DNA of 42,664 bases, from NCBI GenBank assembly GCA_015066165.1, contig SVOX01000001.1, positions 1 through 42,664 of the forward strand. Reading direction: 5' to 3'. Positions 24,581 through 41,907 of the stretch are shown piece by piece (positions within the stretch are counted from its first letter, which is position 1; each line of letters starts with the position of its first letter). Below the pieces are notes generated by a model, which was not told the origin of the DNA, did no database searches, and saw only the letters and a program-made list of their open reading frames with translations. The stretch is from Oscillospiraceae bacterium. GTDB taxonomy: Bacteria > Bacillota > Clostridia > Oscillospirales > Acutalibacteraceae. The translations under genes and the position numbers were made by a program.

Positions 24581-24601
24581 AAAAAACCCTCCTTATTATA
24601 A

Positions 24602-25918: not shown

Positions 25919-25937
25919 AACGGCAGATACTATTCTT

Positions 25938-27711: not shown

Positions 27712-27832
27712 TAGCGGTTGGTGTATTTTAACCATAAATTTTAATACAAAATTCGAATGAAAATGCGAACTTTAAAAATCTGTAAGTCCCAAAATTTATT
27801 CGTATCTGTGCCAATGTGGATATAATAAATTA

Positions 27833-28056
27833 AGACGGCGATTATTCGCCGTCTTTTTTAATGAATTGCCTTGGGCGTGAATTGGCTTTGCCATGAATTG
27901 TTCGCTTTGCGAACATGAATTAAATTAAATCCTTATGCACCACAGTGCGATTCATGTTGCGCAGCAACAATTTATGTGCTTTAGCACGATTCATAAATCC
28001 GCAGGATTTAATTCATTGCAAAATTACGCTACTGCGAAATTTTGCACTGCGTTCCA
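27833..28056 (+). repeat. Composite intergenic repeat, copy A (terminator hairpin + eight-mini-hairpin array + tail; lacks the TTCACT head)
   Basis: Starts with AAGACGGCGATTATTCGCCGTCTTTTTT. The 192-nt core differs from copy B at 2 positions by eye. The tail TTACGCTACTGCGAAATTTTGCACTGCGTTCC is identical to copy C. Confidence 0.9.
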
Positions 28057-28068
28057 TCGCAACACAAG

Positions 28069-28094
28069 GGGGACGGTTCTATTGTCCCCTTTTA
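28069..28094 (+). terminator. Stand-alone intrinsic terminator-like hairpin between repeat copies
   Basis: GGGGGAC (28069-28075) / GTCCCC (28085-28090) followed by TTTT. No gene lies upstream on either strand. Confidence 0.5.
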
Positions 28095-28112
28095 TATTCC
28101 GTGCCGAAGGCA

Positions 28113-28347
28113 CACCGAAACTCTTCACTATTCACTTTTCACTCTTCACTAAAAAAGACGGCGATTATTCGCCGTCTTTTTTAATGAATTGCCTTGGGCG
28201 TGAATTGGCTTTGCCATGAATTGTTCGCTTTGCGAACATGAATTAAATTAAATCCTTATGCACCACAGTGCAATTCATGTTGCGCAGCAACAATTTATGT
28301 GCTTTAGCACAATTCATAAATCCGCAGGATTTAATTCATTGCAAAAA
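28113..28347 (+). repeat. Composite intergenic repeat, copy B (TTCACT heptad head + terminator + mini-hairpin array; tail replaced)
   Basis: The head carries four phased heptads (C/A/T)TTCACT at 28124-28151. The core is identical to copies A and C apart from 2 substitutions each. It diverges after ...AATTCATTGCAAAA into the operon terminator. Confidence 0.9.
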
Positions 28348-28367
28348 AGACGGCAATCAGCCGTCCT
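28344..28367 (-). terminator. Intrinsic terminator of the nine-gene catabolic operon
   Basis: Minus strand reads GGACGGC-TGATT-GCCGTC followed by TTTTTT. It lies 28 nt after the stop of 28395..29066. Confidence 0.8.
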
Positions 28368-28394
28368 TTTTGCATTGTGTTACATCACGAATTT

Positions 28395-29066
28395 TTAATA
28401 TTCATTACAAAGGAGATACAGCGGTTGCTCATCCTCTTCGATTTGGGCAAAGCGGCCAACCTTATCATAAAAACAGTTATCGTTTGCATCGTCGTTACAC
28501 ATAGAAACCTCGCCCACAATAACGTATCCTTTGCCTTCTTCACCCCAAAACCTGTGATAAAGACCTTTTGTAAGAGTGATGCTTTGACCGGGAGTAAGCT
28601 TTACAATATATCCTGCGGGGAAGGTGTGACGAACGCCGTCTATCGAAACTGTAACGTCAGTATCGGCAAGACAGTTATTTTCATCCGAATTGTAGAGCTT
28701 TATCATAAGATTACCACCACCGCGGTTTATGATGTCCTCCATCTTATACCAATGATAATGCATAGGTGTTACCTGATTTTCAGCAACTATCATAAGCTTT
28801 TCGGCATACGGTTTGGGATATTTTTCGGGATTTTTTTGACTTCCGTTTCTAAGCGTTATGAGAAAAAGTCCCACTTTACTAAAATTGCCGCTACCAAAAT
28901 CGGTAATATCCCAACCGAGTGCATTTTCTCTTATTTCGTCCGCTTCCGATCCCTTTGTTTGCCACTCCTCAGGCGTCCAAAAAAGAAACTCGGGTAACGA
29001 TATTTTATACTCTTTAAAAAGCTTTAAAGCGTTTTTTATAGCACTGTTAATTTCTGACCTTTTCAT
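28395..29066 (-). CDS. D-lyxose/D-mannose family sugar isomerase (cupin)
   Basis: The tracked ORF extends to 29129. ATG 29066 (MKRSEINSAI...) has GGAG upstream. ...GWDITDFGSGNF...LRNG...YAEKLMIVAENQVTPMHYHWYKMEDIINRGGGNL...GEVSMCNDDANDN...LLCNEY closely parallels the E. coli O157 D-lyxose isomerase as I recall it. Confidence 0.85.
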   Translation of the reverse strand: MKRSEINSAIKNALKLFKEYKISLPEFLFWTPEEWQTKGSEADEIRENALGWDITDFGSGNFSKVGLFLITLRNGSQKNPEKYPKPYAEKLMIVAENQVTPMHYHWYKMEDIINRGGGNLMIKLYNSDENNCLADTDVTVSIDGVRHTFPAGYIVKLTPGQSITLTKGLYHRFWGEEGKGYVIVGEVSMCNDDANDNCFYDKVGRFAQIEEDEQPLYLLCNEY

Positions 29067-29080
29067 ATAAAAATCTCCAA

Positions 29081-30880
29081 TTAACCCTTTTTCCAGCGTT
29101 GAATTACACAGGTAACTCTTCCGCCACATTCGTTGATGATTTCATAATCACCAAAGGAAGCGGGGATAACCAAGGTTGAAAACTTATCACACTCTGCCGA
29201 AAGCTCTGGATTAGACTTTGAGCGAACAGTTACCTTTGTAGCAACGGTAGGAGTGAACATATGCATAAACTTGCCTTCGGTGGAGTATTCTGCCTTTTTC
29301 TCAAAGTGAATTCTCTCTACATGATAGGGCATAACCGAATGAGTTTTATAGCGGTCCACAAAATATTCAGGTGTCCACTTTACAACCAACGGAGTTGACA
29401 AAAGGTTATCCTTTACCCAAGATTCGCGACGTGTTTTTTCCATATTTCTGCCGTGTTCAAGATGCATCTTTAAGGGTTTTCCTGTCATAGTTTTCTTTTC
29501 ATCATCCCAAGAAGGACGGGCAAAATCGTACTCGAAGAAAGAATATTCCGTACCATTAATACTTGGGTTTGTATCCATTTCAAGCACCATTTGATTACCG
29601 CCGTGACCGTGCATTGTTCCTGGTGGAATAAGATAAAGGTCGCCTTCCTTACTGTTCCAATTGGCAATAAAATCTTTCCAGTTTTCTATTGGTTTAATAT
29701 TTTGTGATTCTTCACAAAGACGTTCCCATTCTTCGATATCAGCATCATCCTTAAAGCCCATCCAGGTATTAGCGCCCTCGTAAGCTTCGGCTATGTAATA
29801 GGTTTCATAACGACCAAGTGGCTCGTCAAAATGGTCTTCAACATACTTACTGCTTGGGTGAATATGCATAGGCATACTGATACGCTCGGCAGGTTGGGGT
29901 GTTGGATGCCAACCGTCATCAAGCCAAATATCAAGTGGGAAAAGACCCGGGTATTGCTTATTGATAAGCGAACCAACAAGCTCCTCACCATACTGCATAG
30001 CATTTAGCATAGGCATTGAAATACTACGTTCACCGCCAAAGTCGATAAGAATACGAAGCTCTGGACCTGCGATTTTATTCCAAGCGTTATTAGCAAGACC
30101 TTCTACACCGTAATCCATCTGCTCATAGCGATATGCACCCCAAGGACCTGGGCTGAAAATCTTAACCTCGTGTATAGGATATTTAACAAGAGTTGACATT
30201 ATTTCGTCGTACGCCTTGCGAGGCACAAGAACCAAATCATCTTCAAAATAATTTTCAATGTAAAAATCCATTGCTTCATACATATAGTCTTTTTGGCGCT
30301 TTAAGATATAATAATCGGAATAGTTATATTCTTTCCAGCTGTAATCATTTGTAGGATCGGCTTGGCCAAAGGTTGCAAGCTTGCCTGTCCACATATCCCA
30401 TTGTACCTTTTGGTGAGTGTTGTCTATGTAACATTTAACGTCAACAACTTCTGCCAACGCCTTAACGCAGGCGCCCATACCATAGATAATTGAAACACCG
30501 CCCAAAAGTTTTTTCTTTGCGTTTTCTATCGCAGCGGGATTCATAATATCCTCGATAACGCCATTTTTATTAACCTTTCCAAAACCGGGGTCTTCAGTAA
30601 CAAAGGGGGCATTATAAGCGATAATTTCTTCACGCGATAAGAAGAATTCTTGCGCGGGAATAAGCGCTACTTCCCCACCAATTTGCTTGGCAATAGCGCA
30701 AGCGATTTTTTCAAAATCAATTCCGTACCAACCGTCAAGTGCAATAACTCTTGCTCCGCTTTTCACTTTGTCAGCCAAGGCGCTTACTGTCTTATCCCAT
30801 CCAAAAATAACAGAGTCTTTGTTTTTAGCCGAAATTTTAATTTTGTTATCGGCATTTTTAATTGATTCATAAACCGGCAT
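29081..30880 (-). CDS. 599-aa protein: unknown N-terminal domain(s) fused to a PMI-type-I-like cupin (putative aldose/ketose or sugar-phosphate isomerase)
   Basis: His-rich metal-site-like segments ISMPMHIHPS and LIPPGTMHGHGGNQMVLE lie in the C-terminal half. I do not recognise the N-terminal ~250 aa. There is no signal peptide. Confidence 0.45.
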   Translation of the reverse strand: MPVYESIKNADNKIKISAKNKDSVIFGWDKTVSALADKVKSGARVIALDGWYGIDFEKIACAIAKQIGGEVALIPAQEFFLSREEIIAYNAPFVTEDPGFGKVNKNGVIEDIMNPAAIENAKKKLLGGVSIIYGMGACVKALAEVVDVKCYIDNTHQKVQWDMWTGKLATFGQADPTNDYSWKEYNYSDYYILKRQKDYMYEAMDFYIENYFEDDLVLVPRKAYDEIMSTLVKYPIHEVKIFSPGPWGAYRYEQMDYGVEGLANNAWNKIAGPELRILIDFGGERSISMPMLNAMQYGEELVGSLINKQYPGLFPLDIWLDDGWHPTPQPAERISMPMHIHPSSKYVEDHFDEPLGRYETYYIAEAYEGANTWMGFKDDADIEEWERLCEESQNIKPIENWKDFIANWNSKEGDLYLIPPGTMHGHGGNQMVLEMDTNPSINGTEYSFFEYDFARPSWDDEKKTMTGKPLKMHLEHGRNMEKTRRESWVKDNLLSTPLVVKWTPEYFVDRYKTHSVMPYHVERIHFEKKAEYSTEGKFMHMFTPTVATKVTVRSKSNPELSAECDKFSTLVIPASFGDYEIINECGGRVTCVIQRWKKG

Positions 30881-30892
30881 AATAATTCTCCT

Positions 30893-32926
30893 TTAAAATT
30901 TTATTTTTTGCCCTATTTGAGCTTTATAAACTATGTCTTTACTTGTAACCGTGAATTCTTTACCCGTAATCTCTACTGAAAATACTTTTCCGCAAAGCCT
31001 TGCATTTTCTATTTTCATATTAGCGGCAGGGCGGTTTTCTACAGGACAAACCGTAATATTACCGTCAAAATCCGCCCTTATTCCAAAGATGAAAAAGAAT
31101 ATCATCTGAGCGGCTGATACCGAGCTGATATCACCCTGAAGCGGTGTATCTTCGCGGTTTCTTATCATATTAGCGGCACACGAATCGCCCATATACGGCA
31201 TACGCTCGCCCCACCAATACACTCGGCTTAAAATATCGGTTGCCAATTTGTCGTAGCCAATTTCGTAAAGCTGACCGCAAATTTGCATTGTAAAGTGGGT
31301 ACAAATTCCTCCGCCACCGTTATCGATATCCTCTTGGTCGTAGGCAATATCAAGCTTTGACATACTGTGAAGTCCGAATTTCGACAAAAATTCAGTTTCG
31401 TTAAGGTGTGAAATAAGCCCCTCCCGTTCTTTTGCATCAATTACGGGACTATTCAAAAACTTAAACATCTGAACGGTGTAACGTACGTCTCGTTTACCAT
31501 TTGAATCAATAAAATCATACCATTTTATATCATCGTTCCAAAGTGTTTTAAGCTTTTCTTTAAGCCCTAAAGCACGTTCTTTAAGGTCGTCGCAGGGCAT
31601 TTTTGCCACATTGCAAAGTTCCCACACTCGCATATAATTCATATACCTTCTGGCATTTAGGTCGGGCATAATGCCATCATAAAGTATGCCTCGGCGAAGC
31701 TCTAAATGGTCAAAACCGCTCTTGCCGTAATTGAATAAAGAGTTACCATCCTTACCTTCATCACAAGCGTAAGCATAATGTTTCATCCATTCAAGCACCG
31801 TCTTGCCCTCAACCACTTGGAACAAAAATTCTTTTTCGCCCGTAAAAAGCACGTGGTAGTAAACCATACAAATGATTTTTTCTTGGTTCACCTGATACCA
31901 AGGCCCCACCTTACCCGCAGTTACGGGATTTAGGGCATAAGAGGTTGTAAGGTCATTTTTAAGATAAGCCAAAAGTTGTTTTTTATTGCCAAAGGTATCG
32001 TAAATTGGGTGTATCATCAGTCCGCCGCAATAATCCCAAAGATATGAACACATACAAGCGCCGTTAATACTGCCTGTACTAAAATAAGGCACAGCACAAA
32101 GGTCGCTGTTTTCCCAACGGCAAAGCATATATGTAACAAGTGAGCGGTAGTATAGGTTATCGAGCGCTTTGTTATCGCTTGAAAGGTGTGGCAGATTATC
32201 GTAAATTCTTTTAGATTCTTTCGAAAACCACTCAAACGAGCTTTGCATAAAATCATAAAAATCAAAATTTTCCAAATTTTCGCCTTTTAAAACCGCTTCT
32301 TTTTTATCAAACTGTACCGTTATAAAAACCGTATATTCGCCGTTTGGATTTAATGTGATTTCACCCTCTAAAAGACGGGCTAACTTAAAAAGCTTTACGG
32401 GAATTGACACGGTAATATTCATACCGCAATCATCGGTTTCCAAATACACACCGTTTTTTTGCGGTATAGTATTTGTCACCAAGTTTTTTGCTGTTTGCGG
32501 ACCTAAAAAATCCCAGTTACTTTCATACCGTGGGTTTGCGGTGTATTCAATTTGAAAAGGTAGGGTTAAGACTTTGCTTGTTTTATTTTTATAGGTCACA
32601 CCCATTACAAAACGGCGACTTTTCGGCACTACCGCAGTAATGGTTTCTATCGTAAAATCGGCAGTCTCACCCACACGCTTCATAGCGTTCGGAAGCCATA
32701 CCCATTCTTTCACTTTTACCCTTTCGCCATTTGTTACAACGTCAAGGTGAAATCCCGTATCGGTATATGGACATCCCTGAAAACAGTCGGCGGCCGCCAC
32801 CGAATATTCGGGAGTACGAAGCGAAGAAACATCTGCGCAAATGCCCAAATCCTTTTCTTCTAAAATTGAAAATTCACCTTTAAAAGCGTAAACACTGTTT
32901 TCAAAATAAGAATTATATCTTTTCAT
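30893..32926 (-). CDS. Putative (alpha/alpha)6-barrel glycoside hydrolase, GH63 / MGH1 / GDE_C-like
   Basis: The tracked start is GTG 32938. ATG 32926 is preceded by GAGGGTG. The C-terminal half carries ...FLSKFGLHSMSKLDIAYDQ... (compare GLRSLS..DP.Y of GDE_C/GH63-type toroids) and an aromatic-rich helical region. There is no signal peptide. The family call is tentative. Confidence 0.4.
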   Translation of the reverse strand: MKRYNSYFENSVYAFKGEFSILEEKDLGICADVSSLRTPEYSVAAADCFQGCPYTDTGFHLDVVTNGERVKVKEWVWLPNAMKRVGETADFTIETITAVVPKSRRFVMGVTYKNKTSKVLTLPFQIEYTANPRYESNWDFLGPQTAKNLVTNTIPQKNGVYLETDDCGMNITVSIPVKLFKLARLLEGEITLNPNGEYTVFITVQFDKKEAVLKGENLENFDFYDFMQSSFEWFSKESKRIYDNLPHLSSDNKALDNLYYRSLVTYMLCRWENSDLCAVPYFSTGSINGACMCSYLWDYCGGLMIHPIYDTFGNKKQLLAYLKNDLTTSYALNPVTAGKVGPWYQVNQEKIICMVYYHVLFTGEKEFLFQVVEGKTVLEWMKHYAYACDEGKDGNSLFNYGKSGFDHLELRRGILYDGIMPDLNARRYMNYMRVWELCNVAKMPCDDLKERALGLKEKLKTLWNDDIKWYDFIDSNGKRDVRYTVQMFKFLNSPVIDAKEREGLISHLNETEFLSKFGLHSMSKLDIAYDQEDIDNGGGGICTHFTMQICGQLYEIGYDKLATDILSRVYWWGERMPYMGDSCAANMIRNREDTPLQGDISSVSAAQMIFFFIFGIRADFDGNITVCPVENRPAANMKIENARLCGKVFSVEITGKEFTVTSKDIVYKAQIGQKIKF

Positions 32927-32934
32927 TTTCACCC

Positions 32935-33933
32935 TCACGCCATAGTTTCAAGCATTTTTAAGGTTACTTCGTAGCTTGTGGCTTCGCCCTTTGAAAAAGC
33001 AATATATTCATCTATCATATACTGCGCCATTCGGTGTATTTCCTTGCCGCCGCTCCCTGCTATATGGGGTGTTAAAATGCAATTGGGAAGGGTGTACAGT
33101 TCACTCGAATTTACGGGAGGTTCGGGCTCGGTCACATCGAGCAGTGCAGTAATATCGTCACGCTTTTTAAGAACCTCTATCATTTCGTTCTCCTTTACCT
33201 GCGCGCCGCGACCAGTATTTATAAAGGTGGCGTATTTTGGCATTGAAGCCAACAATTCACCTGTTATCATACCTTGGGTTTTGGGATTATCGGCAAGGTG
33301 GTTTGAAACTACGTTACATTCTTTGAAAATTTCTTCTAAAGATGCTTTTCGGGCGCCATATTTTGCAATTACAGCTTCATCCACAAAAGCATCAAAAACC
33401 AAAACCTCTACATCGTAGTCCATAAGCTTTTTAAGAACAAGTTTGCCTATCATCCCAGCTCCCAAAATACCTACCTTTGCGCCGTAATTACCGGGGTAAA
33501 TATCACAAAATTCACGCATTCTTTCAAAATTTTCGCTTTTTTTATAATTTTGTGTTTTAAAAAAGCCCTTATTAGCAAGAATAATTTGCGCCGTGGTATA
33601 TTCGGCAACGGGTACCGCATTCGCGGCCCAAGCCGAAAAAACCTTTACACCACAGTTTAAAAACGGTTTTGCAAAGCGCTGAACACTGCCTGCGGCATAG
33701 AAAATTGCCTTTAAATTTGGAAAATATTCTTTAATTTCAGCTTCGGAATATTCCTGCATACCCCAAGTAGCAAAAGCTATTTCAGCTTCTTTGGGATTTA
33801 CTTGTCCAGAAAGAATTTTTTCTTTTGTAAAAACTTCGAATTTTACGTTTGTTATATCAATCAATCTTTGTATAAGCTCTTCGCCGTAAACCTTTTTTAC
33901 TCCACGTTCAAGACCTAAAAATATAGCTTTCAT
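32935..33933 (-). CDS. D-isomer-specific 2-hydroxyacid dehydrogenase family protein (NAD-binding)
   Basis: ATG 33933 (MKAIFLGLERG...) lies 1 nt after the upstream stop, with GGGTGA before it. The dinucleotide fold is GILGAGMIGKLV..., followed by ...NTGRG... and TPHIAGS. Confidence 0.75.
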   Translation of the reverse strand: MKAIFLGLERGVKKVYGEELIQRLIDITNVKFEVFTKEKILSGQVNPKEAEIAFATWGMQEYSEAEIKEYFPNLKAIFYAAGSVQRFAKPFLNCGVKVFSAWAANAVPVAEYTTAQIILANKGFFKTQNYKKSENFERMREFCDIYPGNYGAKVGILGAGMIGKLVLKKLMDYDVEVLVFDAFVDEAVIAKYGARKASLEEIFKECNVVSNHLADNPKTQGMITGELLASMPKYATFINTGRGAQVKENEMIEVLKKRDDITALLDVTEPEPPVNSSELYTLPNCILTPHIAGSGGKEIHRMAQYMIDEYIAFSKGEATSYEVTLKMLETMA

Positions 33934-33934
33934 A

Positions 33935-34681
33935 CTATTCACCCACAATTCTTTTAAGTGCTGCCGACTCTGCTTCAAGCGAAGCAATTTTGCCGTCGGG
34001 CATAAATTCCAAAAGCAAGGTTTTATCCTTTTTGAAGCACTTTAAATACTCTTTCCAAGTGTCCGTGCCGTCACAAAGTGGAAATTTTTGCTTTTCCTTC
34101 CAATTAAAGACGTGCAAATGCTCGGTATAAGGCGACAAAGCAGTTGCATAATTTATATTTTCTTCTACCGTTCTAAACTGATTTGGTTGCCAATACATTA
34201 AAAAATGCTTAGAATTTACTGCTTTTATAAGTGAAAGTGCCGACTCCTTGGTATCGGTATAGGTCCAGTTATGGCACTCAAGACAAAGCCTTACGTTGTG
34301 TTTTTGAGCAATATTTGCCGCCTTTTTACATTCTTCAAAAAGAAATTCGGTTTCACTTTTTGAATACTCTGCCGAGCCCTTATTGCCGCACCAAAGCCGT
34401 AAAATATCAGTGCCGAGTATTTTCGCCGCTTTTATATAACCCTCAAGCTCTTTAGTATCATCTACACCAAGATTAAAATAGGTACCGTATGAGCAACACT
34501 TTATTCCGTATTCTTTTTGCATTTTTACAATTTCTTCGAGCTTTTTTATATCATCCTTGGGTGCGTGAATATCACTTCCCCATTCAATAACCGAAAGTCC
34601 TGCTTTTTGCATAGCTTCAAGTATTTCTTTTGCGGAGTGTTCCCTAAAAGAAATAGAAACCAAACCCAAACTGTAAGACAT
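33935..34681 (-). CDS. Xylose-isomerase-like TIM-barrel protein (sugar phosphate isomerase/epimerase family)
   Basis: 248 aa. Pattern: ...GLSVIEWGSDIH...LRLWCG...LCLECHNWTY...MYWQPN.... Confidence 0.7.
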   Translation of the reverse strand: MSYSLGLVSISFREHSAKEILEAMQKAGLSVIEWGSDIHAPKDDIKKLEEIVKMQKEYGIKCCSYGTYFNLGVDDTKELEGYIKAAKILGTDILRLWCGNKGSAEYSKSETEFLFEECKKAANIAQKHNVRLCLECHNWTYTDTKESALSLIKAVNSKHFLMYWQPNQFRTVEENINYATALSPYTEHLHVFNWKEKQKFPLCDGTDTWKEYLKCFKKDKTLLLEFMPDGKIASLEAESAALKRIVGE

Positions 34682-34693
34682 ATACTTTTCTCC

Positions 34694-36577
34694 CTAATAA
34701 ACGTTTTTATTATCTCTGTAGCTGCGCCAAATATTTTCAAAAAAGTCGTCATTTTGCGGAATTGGTCGAACGTTGCGCCAAGACGACGTAAAACCATTTT
34801 TAGTAATAACCGTTTCTTGCACCTTTAAACGTGAAGCGCCGCTTTCTTCGGTAAAACGAAAAACTTCTTCAAGTCCGTTTCGTAAATTGCCGTTTTCATC
34901 GAAACACAAACTCGAGCCACGGGTATCCTTTACCGTTTGGGCGTAGTTTATCATAGCGTTAAGTAACGCTTTTTGCGTTGTTACAATATCCTTATATTTG
35001 TAATAAAGATATACACGTGACCTATCGCTTACCGTAGCGTTTTTATAGTCTGCGCCTACAAGCATATCGGTCATTTTTGCTTTGTTCCTTATAGCGCCTG
35101 CGCAATCACTCATATTACGCTGTGCTGATAAAATCAGTTCTTCTACGTTATCTGTATTCCCGATTACTGCCTTAATCTCTTTTTGGGTTTCTTCTTCGAC
35201 ACAGCTTAAAACAATTTGAAAATCCTCTTGCGAAATTATCTCATTTCCGTTTTGAGCAATATACTGCGCTGCGCGAAGACTGCCCACCTGCCCTGCATTT
35301 AACGCACTGCCACCGGGACGGGTCACGCCGTGAGTACCTGCGCATTCGCCCGCACAGAATAAGCCCTTAACACTTGTTTGCCACCACATATCAACCGCAA
35401 TACCGCCGTTATTATGTTGGGCACAAAGGGCAATTTCAAGATACTCTTTAGTTATATCCAAACCCTTGCCTTTATAAAGTTCAATAGCGGGGGTATTCAT
35501 TTTTTGAAGGCGCTCAATAGGCGTACCAAACAGCGCCTCGGCTTTATTCAAGTAATCGAATGCCTCTTTGGATAATTTGTTATATTCGATATCTTCTAAA
35601 CCAAAGGGATTTTTAGTAAAATCAAGATATACCCTGCGGTTTTTAAGCACACATTCACGATAAACAAGCAAATCAATAACCGAAGAACCTTCTAAAATCT
35701 TTTTAGAATCAAAAGGCCACTGATATCCCTTTAAGAAAACGAGCGATAACGCTTCATATATATCTTCAAAATAATCGGCCAAAAACTCATACTCGTTACC
35801 GTCTTTATCAACCGAAACAAAACGAGGTAAAACCTGCATATACGTGCCCGAAACGTTCCAACGGGGGTTAATTGATGCTAAACCGTACTGCCACTCGGTA
35901 AGGTTTTGCGCTTTGGCGCCTGCTAAAAGTGCAAGACTTGTAGTTCCCGTGTGACATTCGGGATATACACTATCGGCATAAATTCCCGCAGGACCTCCCG
36001 TGCACATAACGATATCGGCACACTTAAATGCCACAAGAATACCGTTTTTCTTTTCTATACACAAAAGACCGCAAACTACATCTTTATACTTTAAAACTTT
36101 AATAGCAAGGTAACCACTATATATTTCTACGCCCAGATTTTGAGCATTTTTTTGCAATGCCTCGGTCATAAATTTAGAGGTAAGAGGTCCTGCCGAGGTT
36201 GCTCTGGCATAAGGGTCGTGGTCGGTTTTATAGCCAACGTATTCGCCGTAACGGTTTACGGGAAACTCCACACCCAATTCACACAAATTCATAAAACAGC
36301 GTGTAGAAAGCGCCGCTTCGCAAAGAGCGTTATCACCATCGACACCGCACCCTGCAAAAAGGTTTTCCGCCATTTTATAAACGCTGTCGGCGGTATCACC
36401 GCCAAGACCTAATTTATAATATGTTTGCTTATCGCTGCCTGTATTACGTGATGTTCCACATCCTACAGCTTCGGTAACTATGGCAACATTTTTACCAAAC
36501 TGCTTAAGTCGGCAAGCGGCGTTATACCCTGCAGCACCCGTGCCGATTACGACCGCATCGTATGTATATATTTTCAT
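34694..36577 (-). CDS. FAD-binding flavoprotein oxidoreductase (fumarate reductase/succinate dehydrogenase/L-aspartate oxidase-type FAD_binding_2 fold)
   Basis: 627 aa. The N-terminus is YDAVVIGTGAAGYNAACRL..., and a late FCAGECAGTHGVTRPGGSALN segment is typical of this fold. There is no signal peptide. Confidence 0.65.
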   Translation of the reverse strand: MKIYTYDAVVIGTGAAGYNAACRLKQFGKNVAIVTEAVGCGTSRNTGSDKQTYYKLGLGGDTADSVYKMAENLFAGCGVDGDNALCEAALSTRCFMNLCELGVEFPVNRYGEYVGYKTDHDPYARATSAGPLTSKFMTEALQKNAQNLGVEIYSGYLAIKVLKYKDVVCGLLCIEKKNGILVAFKCADIVMCTGGPAGIYADSVYPECHTGTTSLALLAGAKAQNLTEWQYGLASINPRWNVSGTYMQVLPRFVSVDKDGNEYEFLADYFEDIYEALSLVFLKGYQWPFDSKKILEGSSVIDLLVYRECVLKNRRVYLDFTKNPFGLEDIEYNKLSKEAFDYLNKAEALFGTPIERLQKMNTPAIELYKGKGLDITKEYLEIALCAQHNNGGIAVDMWWQTSVKGLFCAGECAGTHGVTRPGGSALNAGQVGSLRAAQYIAQNGNEIISQEDFQIVLSCVEEETQKEIKAVIGNTDNVEELILSAQRNMSDCAGAIRNKAKMTDMLVGADYKNATVSDRSRVYLYYKYKDIVTTQKALLNAMINYAQTVKDTRGSSLCFDENGNLRNGLEEVFRFTEESGASRLKVQETVITKNGFTSSWRNVRPIPQNDDFFENIWRSYRDNKNVY

Positions 36578-37305
36578 TATAATCTCCTAATATGGAATCC
36601 GCCGTCAACGTCGATAGACTGTCCTGTAACATAAGGCAAAGAGCCATTACAAAGTGTCCACACAGCGTTTGCTATATCCTCCGGTTTTCCCCAACGCTTA
36701 ATGGGTAACAGTCCGCCATCTATTAGTGCATCGTATTTTGCTTTAACCTTATCGGTCATACCCGTAGCGATAATACCAGGGCGAATTTCGTTAACCATAA
36801 TACCGTACTCGGCAAGGCGGTCGGCAAAAAGGGTGGTTATCATTGTAACACCCGCTTTTGAGATGCAGTATTCCCCACGACTGACACTGCTTGTATATCC
36901 CGACATTGAAGATATATTTACAATACTTCCCGATTTATTTTCCTTCATTACGTTTGCAACCGCTTGTGTTAAAAACAAGGTTCCCTTGGTGTTTATATTC
37001 ATAACAAAATCGTAAGATTCCTCGGTCATTTCGAGAATATCCGCTCTAACCTTTGGGGCTACGCCCGCAACGTTTACAAGAATATCAACCCTACCGTATT
37101 TTTCCATTGCGGTTTTAAGGTAAGCTTCACGGCTTTTCTTATCACTTAAATCACCTTTGAAATAAGTAAAGTCGCCCTCTAATTCTTGGGGCATTTGGGG
37201 TAATACATCCATACCAACAACACTAACGCCGTTTTCTAAAAGTTTTTTTGCCGTAGCAAATCCTATACCACCCGCAACACCTGTTACCAATGCAATTTTT
37301 TTCAT
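36577..37305 (-). CDS. Short-chain dehydrogenase/reductase (SDR)
   Basis: 242 aa. Motifs are TGVAGGIGFATAKKL (TGxxxGxG), NVAG and YCISKAG (YxxxK). It overlaps the downstream start by 1 nt. Confidence 0.88.
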   Translation of the reverse strand: MKKIALVTGVAGGIGFATAKKLLENGVSVVGMDVLPQMPQELEGDFTYFKGDLSDKKSREAYLKTAMEKYGRVDILVNVAGVAPKVRADILEMTEESYDFVMNINTKGTLFLTQAVANVMKENKSGSIVNISSMSGYTSSVSRGEYCISKAGVTMITTLFADRLAEYGIMVNEIRPGIIATGMTDKVKAKYDALIDGGLLPIKRWGKPEDIANAVWTLCNGSLPYVTGQSIDVDGGFHIRRL

Positions 37306-37306
37306 T

Positions 37307-39127
37307 TTATTTCCTCTTTATATTTATTGTAACTTCATACTGCTTACCGCATAATGCCGTAAATTTCAGTCGGTTCATTTTGTCGGTATTCCAGTTTGCT
37401 TTGAGTTTCTCATCATCTTCAAAATCAACGCTATCATAAGCAAAAGCACCCTCGCAGTCGGCTGTGACGATAAATTCGTTACCGATAATCGCCTTATTGC
37501 CTTCGATAGTTATTTCAAGCGGAGTTATAAAATGCTCACAAAACGTATTTTTATCTTTTGTAAAAACAAATTTATCTTTTATTGAAACTCCGTCTTCATT
37601 TACTGTAACAAAGCGATCTAATGTTTCGATTTTTGCCTCTTTTCTATACGCTTTTGCAAAGCTTATATGGGTAGTGGTACCTTCCATTTCAAAATTATCG
37701 GCCTTGTAAATTTTGCCGTCGGGTTGTTCGTATTCCCCCGTTTGACCAAAGCCGTTAATTTGGGGTAAATTGTGCCACGAAGAGTTCATTGTCCATATAT
37801 CATAACGCTGCAAAGAAAATGTTTTTGCGTTGTAAGTACCGCTACCCGAATCAACAAAAACAGGACAACCATTATAATAAACTATTGCACTACCCACATC
37901 GTAGTGATTATGGCGTTCGGCATTATGACCGCCCTTTGCAGCATAAAACCAACCGTTTTTATGAACAAAAGCATTTTGAGTGTCCTTTAAAATGCAGCTA
38001 TCGCACGGCTCAAAATCAGTCAAAGCTTTAATTTCATCTTCATAAATTAAATCAAAAACCATTCTGCGAAGCATTGAATCGTTATCATTAAGTTCATTAG
38101 GAATAAGATTTAACTCTTTTGACAATGATGAAAGCCGACTATCGTTTATTCGTTTGCCGTACATATAAAGAATATAACTTATTTGTGCGTTTTTAAGGGT
38201 TGTGGCGCCGTCGGCAAAATTGGTGAAATAACCGTTACCAATGTATGCGCGGTATTCATATTTACCGCAGTTTTGAGTGGTTTCATCATTAAAAAAGTTA
38301 ATTTTTCCATTTGTGGCTATGAATAATTGGTCGCAAAATTCAAAAAACGCACCTTGTGACATACACCAATAGGTAGCACCCTCATCACAACCGCCGTCAC
38401 GTGGATAGGTGTTGTAAATTCCCTGTATTTCGCTAATCATCTTTTCTATTCCGTGTTTTAATTTTTCACTGTCCTTTTGCATTATCAAAAATACTGTTAA
38501 AAGGTTAGAAAGTATCCACGGGTTCCAGTTGTCAACCTTCCAGCCGGGTGTGTTGCACATCCAAATAAAATCCCGTCTTTCGAGATAGGGTTTTATTATG
38601 CGGCGTTCTATTTCATACTCAATGCGCTCTAACATTTCGGGACAATATTTCCTTATACCTTCCCCTAAAAGATAATGGCAAAGGGTTAGCATTACCGCAG
38701 TTTCGGCGGCAAAAATATCAATATAGGGGTCATCTGCCGCCTGAATATCATAAGGAGCACCTAACGGATGCTTATGAGCAGACAAGGTCCAAGTGGTTTC
38801 TTCGCACAAAAGCAATGCCCCGTCAACGATATCGGGGATAAATCTGCCTTTGTTTTCAAGCAGTTCACCCAAAATCAACGCGCAAAACGCGGCGCGGCGC
38901 TCAAAATAGGGCTTTTCGTGCCTTTGGCGACTGCCCTCGGTATGAAAAGCAATAAAATCCGATGCCTTTATTAAAGGCCAACTAAAGCCAAGAAATTTTT
39001 CCGCCCTTTTTACATACTTTTCCTTATATTTGCTATCCCAAAATTCACGGTTGGAACCATTTGGGAAAAGCATATTTGAAAAATCAAAATCTGCAACGTT
39101 ATTTTCTTTGAGCCAGGTTACAAACAT
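37307..39127 (-). CDS. Heparinase II/III-like family protein (polysaccharide/oligosaccharide lyase fold), cytoplasmic
   Basis: 606 aa with no signal peptide. The N-terminal helical toroid region is ...FWDSKY...RAAFCALILGELL...LLLCEETTWTLSAH.... The C-terminal GGHNAERHNHYDVGSAIVYYNGCPVFVDSGSGTY matches the start of the Hepar_II_III beta-sandwich. Confidence 0.7.
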   Translation of the reverse strand: MFVTWLKENNVADFDFSNMLFPNGSNREFWDSKYKEKYVKRAEKFLGFSWPLIKASDFIAFHTEGSRQRHEKPYFERRAAFCALILGELLENKGRFIPDIVDGALLLCEETTWTLSAHKHPLGAPYDIQAADDPYIDIFAAETAVMLTLCHYLLGEGIRKYCPEMLERIEYEIERRIIKPYLERRDFIWMCNTPGWKVDNWNPWILSNLLTVFLIMQKDSEKLKHGIEKMISEIQGIYNTYPRDGGCDEGATYWCMSQGAFFEFCDQLFIATNGKINFFNDETTQNCGKYEYRAYIGNGYFTNFADGATTLKNAQISYILYMYGKRINDSRLSSLSKELNLIPNELNDNDSMLRRMVFDLIYEDEIKALTDFEPCDSCILKDTQNAFVHKNGWFYAAKGGHNAERHNHYDVGSAIVYYNGCPVFVDSGSGTYNAKTFSLQRYDIWTMNSSWHNLPQINGFGQTGEYEQPDGKIYKADNFEMEGTTTHISFAKAYRKEAKIETLDRFVTVNEDGVSIKDKFVFTKDKNTFCEHFITPLEITIEGNKAIIGNEFIVTADCEGAFAYDSVDFEDDEKLKANWNTDKMNRLKFTALCGKQYEVTINIKRK

Positions 39128-39131
39128 AAAA

Positions 39132-40454
39132 TCAACCCTTTAAACATTGTTTTTTATATATTGGCAAATAAACCTCTTTATCTCTTATTACACAACCGGG
39201 AGTCCCACCCGCAGTACGCATAATTTCGGTACATTTTGAACAACAAATACAAATTTTATTTTTATCCATACTGCCGTTTTTTATTATATCCTTTGCAAAA
39301 TCGGGGTAAGCAAAAATTGTTCTGCCAAATCCCGCAAAATCAAAAGCGCCATTTTGTATAAAAGCCGAAACAACGTTTGGTGCCGCAACACCTAAATAAG
39401 TTATAGCCGAGCAAATAATCGCCATTTCGGGATTTAAGCTTTTAATTTTCTCAATACCTTTAAGTACTCTTGCCACACCTTGTAACGGATGCTCGGGCGG
39501 TTCATACCCACCGCTAACGTACGGACGGTTTACGTGGGGATTAAAATAAGGGTTGCCCATCGTAATATTAAGAAGCTTTACTCCGTAAGAATGAAGCTCT
39601 TTTATAAGACGGTCGGGTTCGGTAATATCAAACTCTGTTCCGCCGTTTTCACTAACGCCAAAACCGTAAGGGTATGGGAAACCGTCATAAACGTTAAGCC
39701 GAGAAGATACAATAAAATCTTTAGAGCAATTTTCAATTGCACCTTTTACACTCTCGCGCAAAAGACGTGTGCGGTTTTCAAAGCAACCGCCGTATTTACC
39801 TTCGCGTTCAAATGCCGACAGTAATTCCGAATTAAGATAACGGTGACAGCATTTTATATCCACACCGTCAAAGCCTGCCTTTTGGGCAAGTAATGCACCG
39901 TTTACAAGCGCTTCTTTTACGCTATCAAGATATTCATCAGTAGCAATACGGCTTTTATCTATTGGGTTTTCCTTTTCAAAAATCGGGTTATTGTAGGCGA
40001 TTATCGGTGCAGGCGTTCCGTTCGGCTTTGAATAACGTCCCGAATGGGTTGCCTGCATAATAACAAGCGGTTCGTAGCCATTTTCTTTAAAAGCGGTATT
40101 TTTAATATCCTCAACCTGACGCTTAAATGCATCTATATTGTTTTCGTTTATGTATAGTTGATGCGGATTGGCTCTGCCCTCTTCCATTACGGCGGTCGCC
40201 TCAAACCAAATAAGCCCCGCTCCGCCTGTGGCAATTCGTTCATAACGTCTTTTAGTCAAAGTGTCTGGTTCACCGTCGGGTGTTCCGTCACAACCCTCCA
40301 TCGCTTGACAAACAAGTCGGTTTGGAACAGTTTTTACTCCTAATTTATAATCTTTACCCAAAACCGAAACGTCATTAGAAAAAGGAAGGGCTGTGCCCAG
40401 CTCATTGTTCTGAATTTCAAAATCTTTTAATTCCGTATATACCTTTCTAACCAT
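39132..40454 (-). CDS. Old-Yellow-Enzyme-type NADH:flavin oxidoreductase with a C-terminal Cys cluster (enoate/2,4-dienoyl-CoA-reductase N-terminal module only)
   Basis: 440 aa. VPNRLVCQAMEG...GGAGLIWFEATAV...ATHSGR...GFDGVDIKCCHRYL is an OYE TIM barrel. The C-terminal CICCSKC-x12-C resembles the CxxCxxxC...C 4Fe-4S motif of the FadH/enoate reductase family. The protein ends about 20 aa later, with no FAD/NAD(P) domain. Confidence 0.75.
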   Translation of the reverse strand: MVRKVYTELKDFEIQNNELGTALPFSNDVSVLGKDYKLGVKTVPNRLVCQAMEGCDGTPDGEPDTLTKRRYERIATGGAGLIWFEATAVMEEGRANPHQLYINENNIDAFKRQVEDIKNTAFKENGYEPLVIMQATHSGRYSKPNGTPAPIIAYNNPIFEKENPIDKSRIATDEYLDSVKEALVNGALLAQKAGFDGVDIKCCHRYLNSELLSAFEREGKYGGCFENRTRLLRESVKGAIENCSKDFIVSSRLNVYDGFPYPYGFGVSENGGTEFDITEPDRLIKELHSYGVKLLNITMGNPYFNPHVNRPYVSGGYEPPEHPLQGVARVLKGIEKIKSLNPEMAIICSAITYLGVAAPNVVSAFIQNGAFDFAGFGRTIFAYPDFAKDIIKNGSMDKNKICICCSKCTEIMRTAGGTPGCVIRDKEVYLPIYKKQCLKG

Positions 40455-40589
40455 TCAAAACATCCTTTTACTCCATTTTATAAAACCATTATATAAACTC
40501 ACGGCACCAATAACAATATTAATATTGCTCAAAATTATGTAAATCTTGCTTTTTGGGGCAAATTGTGTTAAAATTCAATCGGTGATACT

Positions 40590-41384
40590 ATGAATACTTT
40601 TATACACTCCGCAAAATATACCGATACGGTTAAAAAAATAAGCCCGCACCATCACGATGTACATCAAATATTGTACGTAACCGACGGCTGTGCCGAAATG
40701 ACAATAAACGGCGAATGCTTTTTATTAAAAAAGGGGTCGCTTATATTCATCAGCCGAATGGAAGCGCACTCGGTAAATAACACAAGCGAAAATTACAAGC
40801 GGTATGAAATACGAATACCGCCCGAAATCATAGCCGAAGATATGAAGAACATTAAGCTCTTTTCAGTGCTTTTTGACCGACCGCAGGGCTTTAGCCGAGT
40901 AATCGAGCTACCCGTTGAAAAAACGGCGCCTATCTTTGAACAAATAGTGGCCGAACAAAACCAAAATAACGCATATAAAGCCGAAATGCAGTCTTCGCTT
41001 TTGGATATGCTTTTCATAAATATATACAGAAGCTTTCCTCAATTATTTTCGTCGGCTGAAACTCCCGCTTTTGAAACGGTTAAAAAAATCCAACAGCAGT
41101 TTGAAAATAATATTGAATACAAATATTCTTTAGAAGAAATTTCGCAAGAATATCATATAAGCAAATTTTATCTTTCCCACATTTTTAAAAGTATTACGGG
41201 ATATGCCGTTATGGACTATTTAAAATCACTCCGCATAGCAAGGGCAAAAAACATGCTCGCAAAGACAAATTTGAGTATTAGTGAAATTGTTAAAACTTGC
41301 GGTTTTTCGGATAGCAGTAACTTTAGCCGAGAATTTAAATCAATTACCGGACAAACCCCGAGTAAATTTAGAAACTCACATTGA
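40590..41384 (+). CDS. AraC-family transcriptional regulator (cupin sensor + HTH_AraC)
   Basis: 264 aa. The N-terminal cupin-like region is HHHDVHQILYVTDG.... The C-terminal region is ...YSLEEISQEYHISKFYLSHIFKSITGYAVMDYLKSLRIARAKNML...SISEIVKTCGFSDSSNFSREFKSITGQTPSKFR. It is divergent from the operon. Confidence 0.88.
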   Translation: MNTFIHSAKYTDTVKKISPHHHDVHQILYVTDGCAEMTINGECFLLKKGSLIFISRMEAHSVNNTSENYKRYEIRIPPEIIAEDMKNIKLFSVLFDRPQGFSRVIELPVEKTAPIFEQIVAEQNQNNAYKAEMQSSLLDMLFINIYRSFPQLFSSAETPAFETVKKIQQQFENNIEYKYSLEEISQEYHISKFYLSHIFKSITGYAVMDYLKSLRIARAKNMLAKTNLSISEIVKTCGFSDSSNFSREFKSITGQTPSKFRNSH

Positions 41385-41400
41385 CTTTTCTGAATATGGT

Positions 41401-41667
41401 ACACCTTACTTCTTCACTATTCACTTTTCACTCTTCAATAAAAAAGACGGCGATTATTCGCCGTCTTTTTTAATTAATTGCCTTGGGCGTGAATTGGCTT
41501 TGCCATGAATTGTTCGCTTTGCGAACATGAATTGAATTAAATCCTTATGCACCACAGTGCAATTCATGTTGCGCAGCAACAATTTATGTGCTTTAGCACA
41601 ATTCATAAATCCGCAGGATTTAATTCATTGCAAAATTACGCTACTGCGAAATTTTGCACTGCGTTCC
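41401..41667 (+). repeat. Composite intergenic repeat, copy C (full length: heptad head + terminator + mini-hairpin array + tail)
   Basis: Heptads lie at 41412-41439, the terminator GACGGCGATTATTCGCCGTC+T6 at about 41446-41471, and the core and tail run through ...GCACTGCGTTCC (41667). It starts 17 nt after the AraC stop. Confidence 0.9.
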
Positions 41668-41907
41668 GTCGTGCTTTATTTCGTAATTTTCTTTTAATAT
41701 CAAGTCGCTTATAAACACAAACTCATACCCCTGCTCCTTTAGGGTTTTAAGAATAGTCGGTAACGCTTCGGGTGTATGGTCGGCATCGTTATGGAAAAGC
41801 ACAATACTACCATTTTTGACCTTGCTTGTCACCCGTTTTGCAATACTTTCGGGCGTAGCATTTTCTTTCCAGTCAAGCGAGTCACCATACGATACAAAAG
41901 TAATATT
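41641..41907 (-). pseudogene. Polysaccharide deacetylase (NodB-homology, PdaA/PdaB-like) 3' remnant; N-terminal ~2/3 missing
   Basis: The frame is open from 41907 with no start codon: ITFVSYGDSLDWKENATPESIAKRVTSKVKNGSIVLFHNDADHTPEALPTILKTLKEQGYEFVFISDLILKENYEIKHDGTQ.... This is the C-terminal NodB pattern. An in-frame TAA lies at 41908-41910. The last 9 codons and the stop lie inside repeat copy C. Confidence 0.7.

Follow-up and report, generated by a model that had tools for sequence, protein, structure and literature searches.

A stretch of 42,664 nucleotides from an Oscillospiraceae bacterium (assembly GCA_015066165.1, contig SVOX01000001.1), the whole of which we refer to as the window, contains nine minus-strand open reading frames (ORFs), all co-directional, that run from 40454 to 28395 in the ORF listing. 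We found that this operon is a mosaic of three separately inherited parts, namely a redox core, an inserted lyase gene and a three-gene tail cassette. It fits best among sugar-acid catabolic operons, here built around a widely conserved redox core that has yet to be characterised, and we found no described pathway with its combination of genes. An earlier, sequence-only reading of this DNA had implicitly treated the nine genes as one coherent, lyase-centred pathway; in our comparisons the conserved unit is instead a triad of redox genes, with or without two further genes, to which the lyase is an optional addition and the tail a separate cassette of 4.5 kb. In order of transcription, the parts of the operon are as follows.

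39132 to 40454, minus strand: old-yellow-enzyme-type flavin mononucleotide (FMN) protein (OYE), 440 aa, core triad member 1 (Oxidored_FMN, E 1.4e-19)
37307 to 39127, minus strand: predicted PL33 polysaccharide/oligosaccharide lyase, 606 aa, accessory gene inserted after OYE and before SDR (Hepar_II_III_C; phmmer)
36577 to 37305, minus strand: short-chain dehydrogenase/reductase (SDR), 242 aa, core triad member 2 (adh_short_C2, E 1e-53)
34694 to 36577, minus strand: SdhA/FrdA/NadB-like flavin adenine dinucleotide (FAD) flavoprotein, 627 aa, core triad member 3 (FAD_binding_2, E 9.5e-24, full profile)
33935 to 34681, minus strand: xylose-isomerase-like triosephosphate isomerase (TIM) barrel, 248 aa, second core sub-module, paired with HADH (AP_endonuc_2, E 1e-18)
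32935 to 33933, minus strand: D-isomer-specific 2-hydroxyacid dehydrogenase (HADH), 332 aa from the ATG at 33933 (2-Hacid_dh_C, E 3e-41)
30893 to 32926, minus strand: predicted glycosidase or phosphorylase with an (alpha/alpha)6 barrel of the GH63/glycogen-debranching-enzyme (GDE) fold, 677 aa, first tail gene (predicted structure)
29081 to 30880, minus strand: 599-aa protein with a cupin or mannose-6-phosphate-isomerase-like region and a Rossmann-like N-terminal domain (weak similarity only)
28395 to 29066, minus strand: D-lyxose/D-mannose isomerase (LyxI), 223 aa from the ATG at 29066, last tail gene (Lyx_isomer, 342.7 bits against a cut-off of 20.8)
28397 to 32927, minus strand: extent of the tail cassette (GH63-like, 599-aa and LyxI genes), about 4.5 kb, from a blastn block shared with locus L090

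A search anchored on the flavoprotein yielded 80 loci in species-level genomes, giving a core species count of at least 80, and we compared these loci by tblastn with the window proteins and by ORF clustering. The flavoprotein was 59-81% identical across them, reaching 81% in the nearest species-level genome, and all 80 loci came from metagenome-assembled genomes of gut or rumen Clostridia, mainly from the guts of herbivores (goat, sheep, deer, rabbit and buffalo). Among the 41 loci flanked by at least 5 kb on both sides, the OYE, SDR and flavoprotein genes occurred together in 40, the full set of five core genes (the triad plus the TIM barrel and HADH) in 24, and a divergent AraC homolog in the same position in 26. 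The TIM-barrel and HADH genes were both present in 30 of the 54 loci that extend at least 5 kb downstream of the flavoprotein gene. Identity of the OYE to the window protein was 64-81% in related loci and 43-48% in five divergent ones, and that of the SDR was mostly 63-91%. Because the order of the core genes recurs in dozens of species, we conclude that the arrangement did not arise by chance.

The lyase gene is distributed quite differently from the triad. Only 8-9 of the 80 core loci have, in the slot flanked by OYE and SDR, a PL33 homolog of at least 40% identity, and comparison at the DNA level indicates a clean insertion, as the OYE and SDR genes of L010 and L011, which have no PL33 gene in the slot, lie 12 nt apart. 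Given that the same slot is occupied in at least eight divergent species, at 40-56% identity, the arrangement is old and was retained. Homologs of the lyase were found in unrelated contexts as well (L008).

The three tail genes were found in none of the 80 core loci by tblastn or ORF clustering, and we therefore rejected the idea of a conserved nine-gene unit. They do recur elsewhere as a block: against L090, a locus of a related genome (GCA_054283605.1), blastn aligned the tail as one continuous segment of 4546 nt at 87.6% nucleotide identity, with edges that coincide with the start codon of the GH63-like gene and the stop codon of LyxI. The three proteins are 81, 96 and 96% identical between the two loci, and the genes upstream are unrelated; in L090 the block sits behind a TIM-TIM-Gfo(GH109-like)-Gfo set, that is, two TIM barrels and two Gfo/Idh/MocA oxidoreductases. 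The operon is thus a mosaic, since the triad is conserved, PL33 occurs in a small fraction of core loci, and the tail is absent from all of them and present in L090 behind another enzyme set. A search of gene neighbourhoods, which the sequence-only reading had proposed, recovered the core block in 80 species-level loci and did not recover the full nine-gene block.

The tail genes also keep other company. Of 21 metagenome loci with a homolog of the 599-aa protein, 5 also carry LyxI, among them every one of the four contigs that exceed 9 kb, and homologs of the GH63-like protein occupy still other gene contexts. Elsewhere (for example in L001, L097 and L103), homologs of the 599-aa protein lie beside ribose-type ATP-binding cassette transporters, a PIG-L deacetylase, a 438-aa arabinose-isomerase-like protein, a PfkB or APH kinase, and LyxI. 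To judge from their gene content, these neighbourhoods look like a separate, uncharacterised sugar-utilisation cluster.

Despite their mixed origins, the nine genes of the operon are probably expressed together. Three starts were trimmed to the gene calls on identical metagenome contigs (HADH to 33933, GH63-like to 32926 and LyxI to 29066), and with these starts the successive gaps are 4, 1, -1, 12, 1, 8, 12 and 14 nt, in keeping with the range of -1 to 14 nt given by the sequence-only reading. Signals that could control such a transcript flank the genes.

40590 to 41384, plus strand: divergent AraC-family regulator, 264 aa (Pfam HTH_18, HTH_AraC and AraC_binding)
40455 to 40589, no strand assigned: shared divergent promoter region, 135 nt, between araC and the OYE gene
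28349 to 28365, minus strand: intrinsic-terminator-like GC-rich hairpin GACGGCTGATTGCCGTC followed by T6, 30 nt past the last stop codon

The best promoter-like site on the minus strand in our scan, TTGTTA-17-TATAAT at 40516-40488, is sigma-70-like and agrees with the consensus at 10 of 12 positions, a consensus match only. Given the gaps of only 1-14 nt, co-transcription under a single AraC regulator is likely, in agreement with the earlier proposal of one operon. On inspection, none of the nine N-termini carries a signal-peptide-like hydrophobic stretch, as had been noted before, and all nine products are predicted to be cytoplasmic.

Two features of the surrounding DNA bear on how the operon came to be assembled.

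27825 to 28346, plus strand: two tandem repeat copies (27825-28058 and 28123-28346), each of about 230-270 nt, just downstream of the operon
41412 to 41680, plus strand: third copy of the repeat of about 230-270 nt, just downstream of araC

The three copies lie in the same orientation, are 97-100% identical over about 225 nt, and each hold a terminator-like hairpin plus short palindromes; a 44-nt repeat core occurs three times against none expected by chance. Because the third copy, beyond araC, matches the tandem pair, the 13-kb block of araC and the operon is bracketed by direct repeats. Among the loci we fetched, this 44-nt stretch was confined to contigs of the same species (L002-L004). 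The G+C content of the operon (window positions 28001-40000) is 0.395-0.409, compared with 0.331-0.383 in the flanking 2-kb windows, and this slight excess is compatible with acquisition from elsewhere, as weak evidence. Beyond the tandem repeats, positions 18278-27650 of the window encode a 2100-aa BspA-type leucine-rich-repeat surface protein, then a transpeptidase-domain (penicillin-binding) protein, then a Wzy_C O-antigen-ligase-like membrane protein, and these neighbours recur in the same-species contigs L002-L004.

These observations raise the potential that the layers of the operon are uncoupled in function, being a recent product of recombination in which PL33 and the tail work with canonical GH88, Kdu, KdgK and KdgA enzymes encoded elsewhere in the genome and the triad has an unrelated housekeeping redox role. 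Sharp cassette boundaries, the bracketing repeats, the shifted G+C content and the occurrence of PL33 homologs in unrelated contexts such as L008 would all fit such a history. However, an accidental fusion is made less likely by the retention of PL33 in one slot across species that have diverged to 40-56% identity; other uronate enzymes have, in addition, been recruited independently to the same core, and the short gaps imply that the parts are transcribed together. We consider uncoupled layers very unlikely.

We next consider what the inserted and appended enzymes may do. The protein that had been described as heparinase-like matched the sequences of the PL33 crystal structures 8r73, 8r75, 8r6z and 8r70 over residues 20-582 (phmmer, E 2.4e-91 to 7e-85). 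In BtPL33HA, residues N238, Y291 and H444 are catalytic and H154 binds uronate (PMC11848413). N200, Y253 and H406 of the window enzyme align with these catalytic residues and do not vary across 28 homologs; H118 falls on H154, and the NWNPW platform motif is kept. By its sequence, then, this is a PL33 lyase whose catalytic Asn, Tyr and His are all intact. Its start lies about 25-30 residues downstream of the start in Bacteroides relatives; this is the point at which the mature Bacteroides enzymes start, and it fits a cytoplasmic location.

For the first tail protein, the evidence comes chiefly from predicted structure. The 677-aa sequence itself gave no Pfam match, 16 of its 32 homologs matched PF22422 (MGH1-like GH domain) weakly, with a best E of 3e-7, and a PDB profile search with the family gave no match. 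An AlphaFold 2 (AF2) model of the protein, with a predicted local distance difference test score (pLDDT) of 84.5, matched the amylo-alpha-1,6-glucosidase 7vma in Foldseek (E 5e-22), and also GH94 phosphorylases (query-normalised TM-score, TMq, 0.73), GH65 phosphorylases and the GH63 protein YgjK. Given that a confident model matches all of these, the protein is predicted to be an (alpha/alpha)6 glycosidase or phosphorylase. The 599-aa protein matched nothing in Pfam or NCBIfam and showed weak PDB matches to mannose-6-phosphate isomerases and cupins (1zx5, E 2e-5; 1qwr, E 5e-4 to 7e-5). Its family is strongly conserved, with 905 homologs, of which the best 120 clusters are at least 79% identical, many of them from Lachnospiraceae and other Clostridia. 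The alignment is correspondingly shallow (members at least 80% identical), the model is poor (mean pLDDT 56, and below 50 over the conserved central residues 230-494), and Foldseek returned only generic cupins. LyxI scored 302 bits against the NCBIfam equivalog LyManIsomGneg, under the cut-off of 350, and its substrate preference is therefore not assured. Taken together, the Pfam, NCBIfam and structural results left the earlier family calls essentially in place, with the refinement of the lyase to PL33, and the carbohydrate and uronate theme survived these profile and structure checks through the catalytic residues of PL33 and the GH63/GDE/GH94-type fold of the 677-aa protein.

The best reading we can offer, one that we infer tentatively and hold to be just short of probable, is that the operon serves to degrade, in the cytoplasm, an acidic oligosaccharide taken up from outside, and that the unsaturated uronate is processed by non-canonical redox steps. 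An acidic oligosaccharide would be imported by a transporter encoded elsewhere, and PL33 would cleave it at a 4-linked uronate by beta-elimination to leave a 4,5-unsaturated uronate. The GH63-like enzyme may free a neutral mannose- or glucose-type hexose for conversion to a ketose by the two cupin isomerases. The core would handle the unsaturated uronate, or the open-chain alpha-keto-aldehyde acid 4-deoxy-L-erythro-5-hexoseulose uronate (DHU), in place of GH88, KduI or DhuI, and KduD or DhuD. In this scheme the SDR and HADH might reduce carbonyls, the TIM barrel might isomerise or dehydrate, and the Fe-S OYE and the flavoprotein might act on a C=C bond or an enone, to give a product of the 2-keto-3-deoxygluconate (KDG) type for a kinase and an aldolase encoded elsewhere. 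The allocation of chemical steps to individual core enzymes is speculative. The suggestion, first made from the sequence, that a lyase yields an unsaturated sugar acid for an ene-reductase to act on is a reasonable inference; the broader idea of a non-canonical intracellular pathway is strengthened by a cytoplasmic AraC operon with a catalytically intact PL33 within its redox core, and weakened in so far as it relied on the unity of the nine genes.

The genes that attach themselves to the core elsewhere are variable, and by their predicted families they are biased towards uronates. A uronate lyase or esterase of some kind occurs in about a quarter of the core loci, and a heparinase II/III-like protein of any kind in 20 of the 80. 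In L010, the gene next upstream of OYE encodes a PL22-like oligogalacturonate lyase, L022 and L089 carry other, non-PL33 DUF4962/heparinase-like proteins inside the core, and immediately upstream of the OYE gene in L033 (5557-7911) is a 784-aa fusion of an AP_endonuc_2 TIM barrel with a CE15 glucuronoyl-esterase domain. In L012, L032 and L085, the module is directly followed by proteins that, from their sequences alone, we take to be a 2-keto-3-deoxy-6-phosphogluconate (KDPG) aldolase and a KDG kinase of the PfkB type. Gfo/Idh/MocA oxidoreductases accompany the core in about 15 loci, and further neighbours include GH2, GH4, GH13, GH16, CE4 and a 504-aa GH63 protein, as well as one protein with a weak, sub-cut-off 3keto-disac_hyd match. 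Carriers beside the triad are of the AEC Mem_trans and EamA families, which are of carboxylate type or drug/metabolite type.

In L044 (7955-14129), three to four tandem heparinase II/III-like paralogs of 620-643 aa lie directly downstream of a complete core. An uncharacterised family of about 563 aa, which we call c7, usually lies between the flavoprotein and TIM-barrel genes and occurs in 13 core loci (L015, L016, L021, L024, L027, L058, L071, L074, L075, L078, L079, L081 and L085; for example L078:7811-9499); it matched nothing in Pfam or in a PDB profile search, and hhalign related it neither to PL33 nor to the GH63-like family.

The core enzymes themselves resemble several known families. 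Known families of OYE-fold Fe-S flavoenzymes reduce a C=C bond in conjugation with a carboxylate, a thioester or a carbonyl. The window OYE has a C-terminal cysteine motif, CxxCxxC(x12)C from C402, that is present in 67 of 67 OYE homologs, and it has no FAD/NAD(P)H domain, as the chain stops at residue 440, soon after the motif, and has no Pyr_redox match in Pfam. Assignments as BilR, BaiCD or NamA were rejected, as NCBIfam models of BaiCD, NamA and the N-domain of bilirubin reductase gave only partial matches, 5-10 times below the curated cut-offs. The SDR passes only the generic NCBIfam model PRK12745 (281 bits against a cut-off of 250), and an identity as KduD was rejected at 145-154 bits against NCBIfam cut-offs of 339-430. 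Against NCBIfam nadB, sdhA and frdA, the flavoprotein scored at most 105 bits, with cut-offs of at least 450. Since the nadB and sdhA models align only to its N- and C-terminal parts, at about 3-230 and 364-558 and hence outside 230-364, its capping domain appears to have diverged. The nearest NCBIfam models to HADH, phosphoglycerate dehydrogenase (PGDH) and glyoxylate/hydroxypyruvate reductase, both scored below their cut-offs. The TIM barrel matched NCBIfam ketose 3-epimerases weakly, and its sole relative by sequence in the PDB is AsbF, a 3-dehydroshikimate dehydratase (3dx5, E 1.5e-7).

In L015 and L016, a PyrK-like Fe-S/FAD electron-transfer subunit (Pfam DHODB_Fe-S_bind) is encoded downstream of the TIM barrel (for example at L016:14556-15386), together with what we presume from its sequence to be a GltD-like NAD(P)H oxidoreductase. 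This pair could be the electron donor for an OYE without its own reductase domain, or it could be an unrelated NfnAB pair.

Several considerations weigh against the proposed breakdown of an acidic oligosaccharide. The 599-aa protein gave no usable structure model. In about three-quarters of the core loci there is no lyase within 10 kb, which means that the core need not act on a lyase product, and the KDG-kinase/aldolase-like pair, identified by reading the sequences, adjoins the core in only 3 of 80 loci. The window itself contains no transporter, kinase or aldolase. The OYE has no NAD(P)H domain, and thus no evident electron donor. Moreover, uronates are already oxidised, and the need of a fermenter for several reductases is not obvious. 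Finally, the only solved relative of the TIM barrel is a dehydroshikimate dehydratase and not a sugar isomerase, and the OYE, SDR and FAD_binding_2 trio also embodies the logic of the equol and bile-acid pathways, so it could point to an enone that is not a sugar. In the equol genes, DZNR is an OYE/Fe-S protein, DHDR an SDR and THDR an FAD_binding_2 protein, and ene-reduction is followed by ketone reduction and then by a flavoprotein step; the bile-acid enzymes BaiA, BaiCD and BaiN make up the same trio.

It is therefore also worth considering that the triad, with or without the TIM barrel and HADH, acts on a non-carbohydrate unsaturated or alicyclic acid or aglycone, such as a quinate- or shikimate-type acid, a plant phenolic or a steroid-like enone, with the carbohydrate-active enzymes (CAZymes) merely stripping off sugar or uronyl decorations. 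The logic would be one of oxidation, elimination and ene-reduction, which the equol (DZNR/DHDR/THDR) and bile-acid (BaiA/BaiCD/BaiN) pathways follow with the same family trio. Such a role would suit the kinship of the TIM barrel with AsbF, the lack of a CAZyme in the operon in most core loci, the adjoining carriers of organic-acid (AEC) or EamA type, the predominance of herbivore guts among the loci, and the esterase and GH2 neighbours, which are suited to deconjugation. It accords poorly, however, with a PL33 enzyme that has its uronate-binding and catalytic residues and lies inside the triad, with the proteins we take to be KDG kinase and KDPG aldolase behind the module in three loci, and with Gfo/Idh/MocA, GH4, GH13, GH16, CE4 and GH63-like neighbours, which are sugar enzymes. 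The regulator, too, is an AraC protein with a cupin sensor domain like those of sugar operons, and no CoA ligase or transferase, decarboxylase or aromatic-ring enzyme was seen. On balance, we regard a non-carbohydrate substrate as somewhat unlikely.

The tail block of L090 and the oxidoreductases near the core draw attention to another form of sugar chemistry. Clusters for 3-keto oxidation-elimination have been described by functional metagenomics, among them BT2156-2160, Alistipes AL1-AL4 and the Gram-positive, glucuronide-cleaving P2B11, and AP_endonuc_2 TIM barrels serve as 3-keto-glycoside 1,2-lyases in that system (bioRxiv 10.1101/2024.03.25.586180). The core could be a variant of this cleavage that works on uronides or other 6-anionic glycosides: the SDR or the flavoprotein would oxidise a ring hydroxyl, the TIM barrel would eliminate the aglycone or hydrate the glycal, and the OYE would reduce the enone (a 2-hydroxy-3-keto-glycal) instead of or besides hydration. 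The presence of Gfo/Idh/MocA proteins beside the core in about 15 loci, the resemblance of the TIM-TIM-Gfo(GH109-like)-Gfo set of L090 to the P2B11 cluster (bioRxiv 10.1101/2024.03.25.586180), the use of AP_endonuc_2 barrels as lyases there, and the GH4 and weak 3keto-disac_hyd neighbours all lend this some appeal. Yet Gfo/Idh/MocA genes are missing from the operon of the window, the system as described works without an OYE or an SdhA-like flavoprotein, the TIM barrel of the window matches no solved structure by sequence except AsbF, and PL33 already supplies an elimination step of a different kind. We therefore rate a 3-keto mechanism for the core as quite unlikely.

If uronate breakdown, the reading we prefer, is extended to the core as a whole, the OYE, SDR and flavoprotein (with the TIM barrel and HADH) may constitute an undescribed and widespread route by which gut Clostridia reductively dispose of unsaturated sugar acids derived from elimination, replacing GH88, KduI or DhuI, and KduD and drawing on interchangeable lyase, esterase and glycosidase front ends. 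It could act on the 4,5-unsaturated uronates that polysaccharide lyases release or on enones that arise by 3-keto elimination; we think so general a claim unlikely to hold.

Clostridia of the gut and rumen are among the main degraders of acidic glycans from plants and hosts, yet how they handle uronate oligosaccharides in the cytoplasm is poorly mapped. The operon may be an undescribed way of using such acidic plant or host sugars. A five-gene redox core without an assigned function, present in at least 80 species and repeatedly joined by uronate lyases and a glucuronoyl esterase, makes a testable candidate for a second DHU route, and it offers an orphan family of Fe-S old yellow enzymes, which have no reductase domain of the usual kind, a defined class of physiological substrate. 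The clean edges of the cassettes, in turn, illustrate how modules are swapped as catabolic operons are built in Clostridia.

We compared the operon with known pathways, first by its gene content. Among the window ORFs of at least 120 aa (with antisense ORFs nested in longer genes set aside) there was no GH88/GH105, KduI, sugar kinase, KDPG aldolase or carbohydrate importer, as the sequence-only reading had stated for all but KduI. KduI/IolB and RpiB (DhuI-like) likewise had no match in the window, where the cupins present are Lyx_isomer and the unclassified 599-aa protein. In the literature on PL33 contexts, on ene-reductases with unsaturated uronates and on alternative DHU routes, we found no published pathway with this gene set, nor did one appear in the literature on quinate/shikimate reduction in gut bacteria or on lyxose isomerase with GH63 clusters; the earlier failure to match the combination to a described pathway was thus confirmed.

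Described DHU routes use only KduI or DhuI plus KduD or DhuD (PMC12838403). The window shares with the canonical pathway for unsaturated uronates (polysaccharide lyase, then GH88/GH105, KduI or DhuI, KduD or DhuD, and finally KdgK and KdgA) a predicted beta-eliminating uronate lyase, an SDR and regulation of the sugar-operon type, and in L012, L032 and L085 the likeness extends to the presumed KDG kinase and KDPG aldolase after the module. It differs in having no GH88/GH105, cupin KduI or RpiB-like DhuI, in an SDR that scores far under the KduD cut-offs and in a lyase predicted to be cytoplasmic, and it adds the Fe-S OYE, the SdhA-like flavoprotein, the TIM barrel and the 2-hydroxyacid dehydrogenase. 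With the 3-keto clusters, the operon has in common a predicted non-hydrolytic cleavage based on elimination and an AP_endonuc_2 TIM barrel, and L090 links a tail of the window type to such a set; however, the window has the TIM barrel only, without Gfo/Idh/MocA or DUF1080 proteins, and its OYE and SdhA-like flavoprotein are foreign to the described system.

The window OYE is like the clostridial 2-enoate reductases, 2,4-dienoyl-CoA reductase, BaiCD and BilR in its N-terminal OYE TIM barrel and four-cysteine [4Fe-4S] motif, and unlike them in its want of an FAD/NAD(P)H domain and in scores far under the named NCBIfam cut-offs. In the equol and Bai systems, the same three protein families stand side by side as in the window triad, a likeness at the level of families, whereas the neighbours in the window are carbohydrate enzymes, with no racemase or CoA enzyme among them. 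Known PL33 lyases include BtPL33HA (BT4410), BcPL33HA, BsPL33Hep, ObPL33gellan and ObPL33CS (PMC11848413), which the window enzyme resembles strongly in full-length sequence, in the Asn/Tyr/His triad, in the H154 equivalent and in the NWNPW motif. It is set apart from these known PL33 lyases (PMC11848413) by its lack of a signal peptide and of a polysaccharide utilization locus (PUL) context, and by its place inside a Clostridia redox operon.

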